42,947 bases of DNA from a virus (IMGVR_UViG_3300045988_166496:1-42947); one strand, 5' to 3'. Counted from the first letter of the stretch, positions 33,711 through 34,328 are shown. The notes: generated by a model not told the origin, from the sequence alone. A program made the numbers and translations.

Positions 33711-34097
33711 TTATTTTTCGTATGTTCCTAATACATTTCTTTCTATTCTGTCTTCAACTCTACGATTAAGATACATTAAAGCTAATTCTATATGTTCTAA
33801 TGCTTTTTCATTGTATTCACTGGCGAATGGTCCAGCTTGAAAAGCTTTCATTCTATCTCTCACTATCTCTAGTAAATCTGTATCTATTACTCCATGTTGT
33901 GAGTTCTTATCTTTTCTTGGTCCACGTTGTAAAAATATATCAGCTACAACACCTATAATATTACTTCCATCACACCAACAAGTTTCACCTTCTTCGCAAA
34001 TTATATATCTATGATTTGCCCCTCCTGGACCTATTTCATCTACTGCGTAAACATCGTTTAATTTTTCTCTTTTTTGTATTGTATTTAATTTTCTCAT
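33711..34097 (-). CDS. Small phage accessory protein, a candidate Acb2/Tad1-hairpin-like cyclic-nucleotide sponge (alternative reading: toxin of an RHH-controlled pair)
   Basis: ATG 34097 (MRKLNTIQ) lies after AAGGAG. The C-terminal half is [66 protein letters not shown]. Confidence 0.4.
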
Positions 34098-34112
34098 TAT
34101 TTTTTTCTCCTT

Positions 34113-34141
34113 AAATAAAATAGACACCTATTCAGTGTCTA
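34113..34141 (-). promoter_or_regulatory. Hairpin plus U-run overlapping the RHH stop codon (intra-cassette attenuator candidate)
   Basis: tagacac / gtgtcta stem at 34121-34141, followed on the minus strand by TTTTATTT. Confidence 0.4.
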
Positions 34142-34328
34142 TTAAACCTTTTAATTTACCTTCTTCTTTAAGTTTTTTAAATTGCTCAAACTCTTTTTCT
34201 TCTTCTATAAATTCTTGCATTTTGACTTGTAAAAAGGGGGATATACTAATTCCTTTTCTACAAGCATATTTATAAAATTCGTCATATAGTTCTTCTGGCA
34301 TTGTTACATTTATTCTCTTTAAAGTCAT
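34128..34328 (-). CDS. Ribbon-helix-helix (CopG/Arc-like) DNA-binding protein
   Basis: MTLKRINVTMPEELYDEFYKYACRKGISISPFLQVKMQEFI is a beta-strand followed by two helices. Confidence 0.7.
   Translation of the reverse strand: MTLKRINVTMPEELYDEFYKYACRKGISISPFLQVKMQEFIEEEKEFEQFKKLKEEGKLKGLIDTE

Follow-up and report, generated by a model that had tools for sequence, protein, structure and literature searches.

A Tad1-family sponge gene occupies the variable slot of a ribbon-helix-helix-headed cassette in a Clostridium-type phage genome

Ribbon-helix-helix (RHH) proteins of the CopG, Arc, and omega types repress their own promoters. The RHH regulator Aca14, whose inverted repeat lies over the −10 element, represses anti-defense operons (bioRxiv 10.64898/2026.07.27.740549). 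CbTad1, a sponge from a Clostridium botulinum prophage, binds glycocyclic ADP-ribose (gcADPR) and 2',3'/3',2'-cyclic GMP-AMP (cGAMP) in a pocket at its dimer interface built from F82, N92, R109, and R113, with Q8, L13, and L119 serving the guanine, and mutation of Q8, L13, R57, F82, N92, R109, R113, and L119 abolishes gcADPR and cGAMP binding (PMC10680739). The cyclic trinucleotides cA3 and cAAG occupy a separate pocket at the trimer-of-dimers interface, bound via R90 and T97, both of which also support the hexamer (PMC10680739). Within the library of papers that was searched, none linked Tad1 with an RHH regulator. We describe such a pairing in the genome of a gut Clostridium-type phage, IMGVR_UViG_3300045988_166496, analyzed over its whole 42,947 nt (1-42947, hereafter the window), where positions 33711-34328 hold exactly two open reading frames (ORFs): an RHH gene and, downstream of it, tad1. 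The first-pass annotation of this DNA had seen the same pair; we correct its orientation to the minus strand, on which all cassette features described below lie. We think it likely that the Tad1 sponge is exchangeable cargo of an RHH-headed cassette that is autorepressed in the manner of anti-CRISPR-associated (Aca) regulators.

The cargo gene, tad1 (33711-34097), encodes a 128-residue protein that belongs to the Tad1 family and not to Acb2. From a GTG, its frame extends over 138 codons, and an ATG at 34097 gives 128 residues; we adopt the shorter product, 33711-34097, because a ribosome-binding site (RBS), AAGGAG, lies 9 nt upstream of this ATG and because the alignment with CbTad1 begins at that methionine. 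Existing gene calls for 33711-34127 follow both starts, with 138 residues from the GTG in JGI/IMG (P0312) and 128 residues in ENA and Logan. Against PDB sequences, phmmer matched residues 1-127 to CbTad1 (7UAV, 7UAW, 8SMD, 8KBE-H) with E=1.7e-40 and returned the C. mangenotii protein (CmTad1, 8KBB) more weakly, with E=4.3e-7. A tblastn search of isolate phages yielded 52 records, among them the proteins annotated as Tad1 in Bacillus phages SBSphiJ7 and SPG24; the nearest homologue among isolates, at 66% identity, comes from Clostridium phage vB_CpeS-1181 and is misnamed "ABC transporter ATPase." This name and "structural protein" recur as misannotations of Tad1 homologues in isolate phages and at NCBI. 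With CbTad1 and the SBSphiJ7 protein, the window protein shares full-length homology (58-66% identity), an N-terminal beta-sheet with two long C-terminal helices, a C-terminal lid (..RNVLGT), and a temperate Clostridium-type phage origin.

Structure and domain data agree with this assignment. The AlphaFold2 (AF2) model (predicted local distance difference test score, pLDDT, 72) consists of strands followed by two long helices, residues 72-88 and 94-122. All 20 significant Foldseek matches in the PDB are Tad1 structures, with template modeling (TM) scores of 0.66-0.78, the best being CbTad1 (1.3e-12, TM 0.72-0.77), with CmTad1 at ~1e-6; fold matches in BFVD are to "Acb2/Tad1 hairpin" proteins. 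Acb2 itself was considered and rejected, since neither the PDB sequence matches (E<=10) nor the Foldseek matches include an Acb2 chain. A search of 5.8 billion proteins found 2,972 homologues, and each of the 120 closest (the best 120 of the 2,972 matches) carries a precomputed match to PF24729 (Acb2_Tad1_hairpin), some being named "Acb2/Tad1 hairpin domain-containing protein." Our local Pfam and NCBIfam scans of the 128-residue protein returned no match. The local Pfam scan was equally empty for P0001, a 94% identical protein that represents the cluster holding the window protein and carries the precomputed PF24729 match, so the local Pfam null seems to reflect a gap in the library and not a property of the protein. 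The first-pass annotation had called the protein Acb2/Tad1-like, to be settled by Foldseek; the Tad1 half of that label stands on sequence and fold alike, and the Acb2 half does not. The C-terminal pattern that it had quoted proved to be the core of the domain that UniRef and Pfam name "Acb2/Tad1 hairpin" (PF24729), found on all listed close homologues.

The residues that form the gcADPR and cyclic-dinucleotide pocket of CbTad1 are conserved in the window protein. In a MAFFT alignment, Q8, L13, R61, F86, N96, R113, R117, and L123 correspond to CbTad1 Q8, L13, R57, F82, N92, R109, R113, and L119, giving an identical pocket that CbTad1 and SBSphiJ7 Tad1 share, and these positions are invariant or nearly so (at least 119/120) among the 120 closest homologues. 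A wider survey of the 150 best 50%-identity cluster representatives of Tad1 homologues found them kept in 119-139. The second site differs: CbTad1 R90, C94, and T97 at the trinucleotide and hexamer interface become E94, K98, and E101. The R/C/T and E/K/E triplets each account for about half of the 120 closest homologues, and among the 150 representatives R90 and T97 are each kept in only 41 and the E/K/E form occurs in six; because so few representatives keep R and T, the R90/T97 pair is a trait of the characterized homologues and not of the whole family. From this pattern we infer that the pocket for the Thoeris signal is retained, possibly together with that for cyclic dinucleotides, and that the cyclic-trinucleotide pocket is probably lost or remodeled. 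As the CbTad1 trinucleotide site is not conserved, any activity against the cyclic oligonucleotide-based antiphage signaling system (CBASS) could extend no further than cyclic dinucleotides. An earlier suggestion of an anti-CBASS/Thoeris sponge is thus upheld for the gcADPR and dinucleotide pocket and not for trinucleotides.

The same substitutions raise the question of whether a Tad1 fold has here been turned to another purpose, with E94/K98/E101 and a cysteine-rich insertion adapting it to a different immune signal or oligomeric state instead of just abolishing cyclic-trinucleotide binding. The alternation of the two triplets, the much lower retention of R90/T97 than of the gcADPR pocket, and the wide functional plasticity of sponge families (PMC12393519) all speak for such a shift. 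The gcADPR pocket is fully conserved, however, and the primary ligand is most simply unchanged. The insertion, which makes the inter-strand loop of the window protein 4 residues longer than that of CbTad1 and bears C34, C40, and C42, is likewise of little help to this explanation, the triad being present in just 28 of the 120 close homologues; on the same count we dropped these cysteines as a conserved metal site. We therefore judge shifted specificity improbable, and it is in any case compatible with the Tad1 sponge being cargo of an RHH-headed cassette.

The RHH gene and tad1 are separable, and the gene in the cargo slot is exchanged among related loci. Our census comprises 38 loci with a 66-residue RHH protein. 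Directly 3' of the RHH gene lies either Tad1, of 128 or 125 residues, or one of six other families: a 73-residue CxxC..CxxC protein, an 84-residue protein, a 98-residue zinc-ribbon-like protein, a 111-residue protein, a 123-residue protein or its 135-residue homologue, and a 186-residue membrane protein. Tad1 lies behind the RHH gene in the window, in L101, which is an independent assembly of the window genome, and in another 10 loci (12 when truncated copies are counted). The RHH protein ahead of the six other cargo families is likewise the same or nearly so; the window RHH protein, at 100% identity, precedes four products, namely Tad1 of 128 residues, Tad1 of 125 residues, and two unrelated proteins. 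Conservation breaks off at the start codon of the cargo and sets in again at its stop codon. Wherever downstream sequence is available (36/36 loci of the 66-residue type), the cargo lies on the same strand and starts 29-39 nt past the RHH stop, or 47 nt for the 98-residue cargo. It has its own RBS straight after a U-run, with no promoter-like site between it and the RHH gene. For the alternative cargos, nothing informative came from Pfam, PHROGs, NCBIfam, or PDB sequences. The 123-residue cargo has only seven homologues, and its AF2 model is poor (pLDDT 57.6) and gave no fold match in Foldseek.

Conversely, Tad1 homologues that are 58-98% identical to the window protein occur in 30 IMG/VR loci without the RHH gene, in unrelated contexts that include early genes, the head module, the vicinity of a DNA polymerase, and tail genes. 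A phmmer search with the window RHH protein against all ORFs of at least 30 codons in these 30 loci and in phage vB_CpeS-1181 (31 loci) found none. Nine of these Tad1 phages show 92-97% DNA identity to the window over the tad1 ORF and its RBS alone. These observations bear on the first-pass alternative of a type II toxin-antitoxin system, in which the RHH protein would be an antitoxin neutralizing a toxic 128-residue partner. The gene order, a small RHH gene and then a small protein, is as that model expects, and the RHH protein shows weak, sub-threshold likenesses to RelB, DUF6290, CcdA, and HicB-like families. Its downstream partner, however, is a Tad1 sponge and belongs to no toxin family, and members of the Tad1 family are routinely overexpressed without toxicity (PMC10680739, PMC12393519). 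Tad1 also occurs on its own in the 30 loci just described, and because an identical RHH protein precedes four different products, a cognate toxin-antitoxin pair is ruled out. We regard the toxin-antitoxin model as exceedingly improbable.

The RHH gene (34128-34328) encodes a 66-residue protein of the CopG/Arc/MetJ type that matches PF07878 (RHH_5) with E=1.3e-7 and 31.6 bits over residues 4-44, above the curated cutoff of 26, and so bears out what had been read from the sequence in the first pass. It also matches PHROG "Arc-like repressor" families, and the name JGI gives to an identical protein is CopG/Arc/MetJ family regulator. The likeness to the antitoxin family RelB mentioned above (NCBIfam, E=8.7e-4, 19.6 bits) falls well short of its cutoff of 50, and those to DUF6290, CcdA, and HicB-like families come from Pfam. 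The exact window protein was found on 42 contigs. Its homologues are few, 40 clusters in all, and always sit between the tail-fiber and lysis genes of Clostridium-type phages. Since an RHH-profile search of genome contigs matched a single locus, in Clostridium nigeriense, we hold the host assignment to be loose. A subgroup of 59-residue RHH proteins is often encoded alone, followed by hundreds of noncoding bases, and has its own terminator.

Between the two genes of the window, a hairpin followed by a U-run (34109-34143) overlaps the RHH stop codon and is a candidate partial terminator or attenuator. The stem-loop AAUAGACAC-UGAAU-AGGUGUCUAUU (34143-34119) runs into UUAUUU, with the cargo RBS AAGGAG (34107-34112) 3' of the hairpin. 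The element was flagged by a terminator scan, folds at −13.5 kcal/mol (z=−4.4 against shuffled sequences), and is kept in 38/38 related loci regardless of the cargo gene; the first-pass annotation had noticed the same hairpin, and its surmise that it attenuates the second gene is plausible from the sequence. The scan reported this one site and overlooked two terminators farther downstream, and we make no argument from its being the only terminator.

The solitary 59-residue genes and this hairpin invite a different explanation, namely that the RHH protein is a phage regulator with another job, such as lysis or late-gene timing or a prophage function, and that an adjacent hot spot for morons happens to hold tad1. 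It would account for the constant position of the RHH gene between fiber and lysis modules and for a 59-residue subgroup with its own terminator and often no closely linked downstream gene, and the hairpin and U-run could simply terminate the RHH transcript. It fits poorly with the tight 29-39-nt coupling of RHH gene and cargo in nearly all loci of the 66-residue type, with no promoter-like site between them, and with an inverted, covarying operator-like unit downstream that brackets the cargo within the regulated unit. We consider this explanation unlikely, if somewhat less so than a shift in Tad1 specificity.

Conserved DNA precedes the RHH gene. In an alignment of 21 distinct upstream regions, blastn (block WIN 3871-4228), and motif searches, the left arm opens with GGTTCGCAAT (34450-34459), which reads TTAGTTCGCAAT in most related loci; similarity among the 38 loci starts abruptly at (TTA)GTTCGCAAT, past unrelated fiber genes. 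Alignment and motif counts then define repeated units of the type (T)TTACACAC, with an inverted GTGTGTG at their end (34381-34439); this candidate operator array abuts a −35-like hexamer from upstream and differs in copy number among loci. A count over the 43-kb window gives three exact copies of TTTACACAC, each inside a cassette arm. The promoter-like site that we infer, TTGCGA-N17-TACACT (34353-34381), agrees with the consensus at 8/12 positions; all 38 loci keep its hexamers and 17-nt spacing, and the divergent L050 group, with TTGCCA, is no exception. From the −10 hexamer to the RHH RBS runs an inverted repeat, CCCTTACAC-N-GTGTAAGG (34330-34362), that takes the form CTTACAC-N13-17-GTGTAAG across loci. 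It occurs once in the window (0.04 expected), is kept in 38/38 loci, and covaries at its outermost pair (C..G for the window group, A..T elsewhere); folded as RNA it reaches −14 kcal/mol (z=−4.0). This repeat is a candidate RHH operator, or else a candidate RBS-sequestering hairpin in read-through RNA.

The right arm, ~110 nt of noncoding DNA downstream of tad1 (33578-33687), mirrors part of this layout. Its first bases are TTAGTTCGCAAT, as for the left arm, and it contains TTTAGTTCGCAATAAT, an inverted operator-like unit GTGTGTAAAG, a GC-rich hairpin, CCCCTCTA-N20-TAGAGGGG (33607-33653), and an imperfect partner, ATATTACGAAT. Nucleotide identity is 76-90% after five cargo types (the 73-, 98-, 111-, and 123-residue proteins and Tad1); a partial copy lies behind the 186-residue membrane protein, and none was found behind the 84-residue cargo. 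Read in reverse complement, the right-arm unit gives that of the left arm; the two covary, GTGTGTAAAG going with CTTTACACAC and GTGTATAAAG with CTTTATACAC. The arm folds at −26.2 kcal/mol (z=−3.7); its closing stem varies on one side only, with some changes compatible with G.U pairing, others mismatched, and no compensatory pairs. It may act as a structured RNA or as a DNA site. A scan of 33300-34600 against Rfam gave only a chance miRNA match.

Motifs resembling the cassette boundaries also occur elsewhere in the window. At the conserved 5' end of the fiber gene (36583-36610, coding ..LSSQYKDIANY..), one copy of the AGTTCGCAAT repeats forms a perfect palindrome of 12 bp, AGTTCGCAATAT-aaag-ATATTGCGAACT (z=−7.5); its 10-mer also opens the left and right cassette arms, and the ~60-nt stretch around this palindrome is the only part of the fiber gene conserved across loci with different fibers. 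This sequence may mark a module boundary, serve in recombination, or form an RNA hairpin. We attribute to chance another AGTTCGCAAT at 12813, which falls within an HNH gene (coding ..NSSQW..).

Taken together, the order of the cassette is a promoter-like site, the inverted repeat with TTTACACAC units, the RHH gene, the hairpin and U-run, the cargo ORF, and the 3' arm, and it suggests how the cassette might operate. The RHH protein would bind the inverted repeat and the TTTACACAC units and, in Aca fashion, repress its own promoter. The hairpin and U-run would stop part of the transcripts before the cargo, which would yield a high ratio of regulator to cargo. More speculatively, a ribosome finishing the RHH gene would melt the hairpin; because the RHH stop codon lies inside it, read-through into tad1 could hinge on RHH translation. 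By homology, Tad1 oligomers would then sequester the Thoeris signal gcADPR at the dimer interface, and possibly cyclic dinucleotides of the 2',3'/3',2' type, and with gcADPR sequestered a host effector of the ThsA type would stay off. The slot fixed by the RHH gene would probably serve anti-defense genes.

Several considerations count against this account of an autorepressed cassette with Tad1 as its cargo. Ligand binding, RHH repression, and attenuation are here predicted from homology and sequence. The promoter-like site is a weak match to the consensus and was not flagged by the scan tool, and the hairpin, with only 3 G-C pairs of 10, may be a weak terminator or a mere RNA-stability element. 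Sponges are expected early, and the cassette lies in the late region. None of the alternative cargos matches a known anti-defense family, which leaves Tad1 as the sole basis for speaking of an anti-defense slot. The lone 59-residue RHH genes, finally, may point to an RHH role independent of any cargo.

A bolder version would have the RHH unit be a dedicated, exchangeable anti-defense slot of gut Clostridium-type siphophages, its other cargos, among them two zinc-ribbon-like proteins of 73 and 98 residues, being undescribed immunity inhibitors and the E/K/E form of Tad1 being a specificity variant no longer binding cyclic trinucleotides. The RHH gene, attenuator hairpin, and 3' arm would form a fixed frame, bracketed by AGTTCGCAAT boundary repeats and mirrored TTTACACAC units, within which single ORFs are exchanged. 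We advance both the functional claim and this bracketing tentatively, as possible and somewhat doubtful; the AGTTCGCAAT repeats may mark recombination boundaries.

The comparison with described systems places the cassette between several of them. As in Aca systems, a small DNA-binding protein accompanies an anti-defense gene, the regulator is conserved while its partners vary, and the regulator can be used as a guilt-by-association marker; two Aca-like features, co-encoding with an anti-defense gene and varying partners, are thus both found here. The inverted repeat overlaps the −10 hexamer as it does for Aca14, a likeness of layout and not of compared sequence. Unlike Aca genes, which lie downstream, the window regulator lies upstream of its cargo, with a hairpin and U-run in between; its partner is a signal sponge and not an anti-CRISPR, and the phages are those of Firmicutes and not Proteobacteria. 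With the Omega, CopG, and Arc repressors, which bind short repeats in arrays, it shares a fold family and short direct and inverted repeats that abut the −35 hexamer in varying copy number. It differs from them in its unit, (T)TTACACAC, and in a further inverted unit ~750 nt away in the 3' arm, within what remains a putative operator. Like phage morons, the cassette sits between tail-fiber and lysis modules and has its own promoter-like site, a terminator, and sharp similarity boundaries; unlike them, its regulator and flanking arms are fixed and the ORF alone is swapped, which makes it a docking slot and not a whole inserted unit. None of the studied Tad1 proteins has been described in an RHH-headed cassette.

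Other RHH loci show further variation. Tandem RHH copies occur in three (L098 2508-4180, L045 3476-4117, and L032 2605-3162), and between the two copies of L098 lie, in this order, a 44-residue ORF, a HEPN-like protein of 138 residues, and a 125-residue protein. The RHH gene is frameshifted in six contigs, L107-L112 (e.g., L107 2249-2500), ahead of the 135-residue homologue of the 123-residue cargo; in L107, the locus inspected, the promoter inverted repeat is also degenerate in its right half, and the frameshift may reflect regulator decay or an assembly error. Phages with the 59-residue RHH protein carry, downstream of it, a 257-residue protein with a TIR_2 domain and a 55-residue ORF (L079 4601-5374, L084 3054-3827), flanked by duplicated holin and amidase genes, and this RHH subtype is also annotated in Clostridium disporicum.

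The window has a G+C content of 28% and no tRNA genes. A terminal direct repeat of 119 nt (1-119 and 42829-42947) marks it as a circular MEGAHIT k=119 contig, and the assembly, ERZ27229848 k119_258972, is complete and circular, with a genome of ~42.8 kb. A megablast search of 32300-36700 against isolate phages gave no match. On the 5' side of the cassette lie a BppU_N protein and a 740-residue BNR-repeat fiber; on the 3' side follow a 25-residue ORF, a 191-residue membrane protein, a holin (Phage_holin_4_1), and an amidase endolysin. The placement between the last fiber gene and the lysis genes that had been proposed for the pair is therefore right as to its flanks and wrong as to direct adjacency to the lysis genes, since the noncoding arm, the 25-residue ORF, a terminator, and the membrane-protein gene separate tad1 from the holin. 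The 25-residue hydrophobic ORF (MFDFYKTLMICTTIIFSILIIFGTN; 33484-33561) has a strong RBS, AGGAGG, comes right after the right arm, and was seen in the window genome only; its membership in the cassette is uncertain. A hairpin, AGAGCAG..CUGCUCU with a run of six U (33440-33473), likely ends the transcription unit, at a statistically weak −10.1 kcal/mol and z of only −1.5.

Beyond this hairpin, immediately before the holin gene, stands a strong intrinsic terminator that the scan missed, AAAAGGACUGUA-GCGG-UACAGUCCUUUU (32773-32806, minus strand; −16 kcal/mol, z=−5.7). For the lysis genes this implies either a promoter of their own or antitermination; at L050/L058 and L069/L077/L078, the same terminator hairpin comes after the right arm. 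The 191-residue multi-pass membrane protein (32850-33425, minus strand) has no family match. Because a 186-residue homologue, 68% identical, fills the RHH cargo slot in L034-L036, we take its gene to be a mobile accessory ORF. Just past the right arm of L034 (4955-5212), L036, and L038 (958-1215) lies a 162-residue protein that is 43-45% identical to the 123-residue cargo family, and related accessory genes therefore fill neighboring positions in this hot spot. Elsewhere in the window, two recombinases no more than 5 kb apart span 25937-30909, a large serine recombinase (25937-27589, plus strand) and a tyrosine integrase (29902-30909, plus strand), with an FtsK/SpoIIIE ATPase (27957-29030, minus strand) and a Replic_Relax protein (29014-29595, minus strand) between them; the segment may be a nested integrative or mobilizable element.

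Taken by itself, the Tad1 homologue is one more member of a family with more than 1,500 known sequences, and its E94/K98/E101 variant offers a testable prediction of which Tad1 proteins have lost activity against cA3-based CBASS. What is new is the RHH-headed cassette, with a near-invariant RHH protein, conserved regulatory DNA in 38 loci, and a slot for a single gene. To our knowledge, few anti-defense genes are known from Firmicute gut phages. If the RHH protein is indeed Aca-like, it would provide a guilt-by-association handle for new anti-defense genes in these phages, and it would extend RHH-type anti-defense regulators from anti-CRISPRs to signal sponges.

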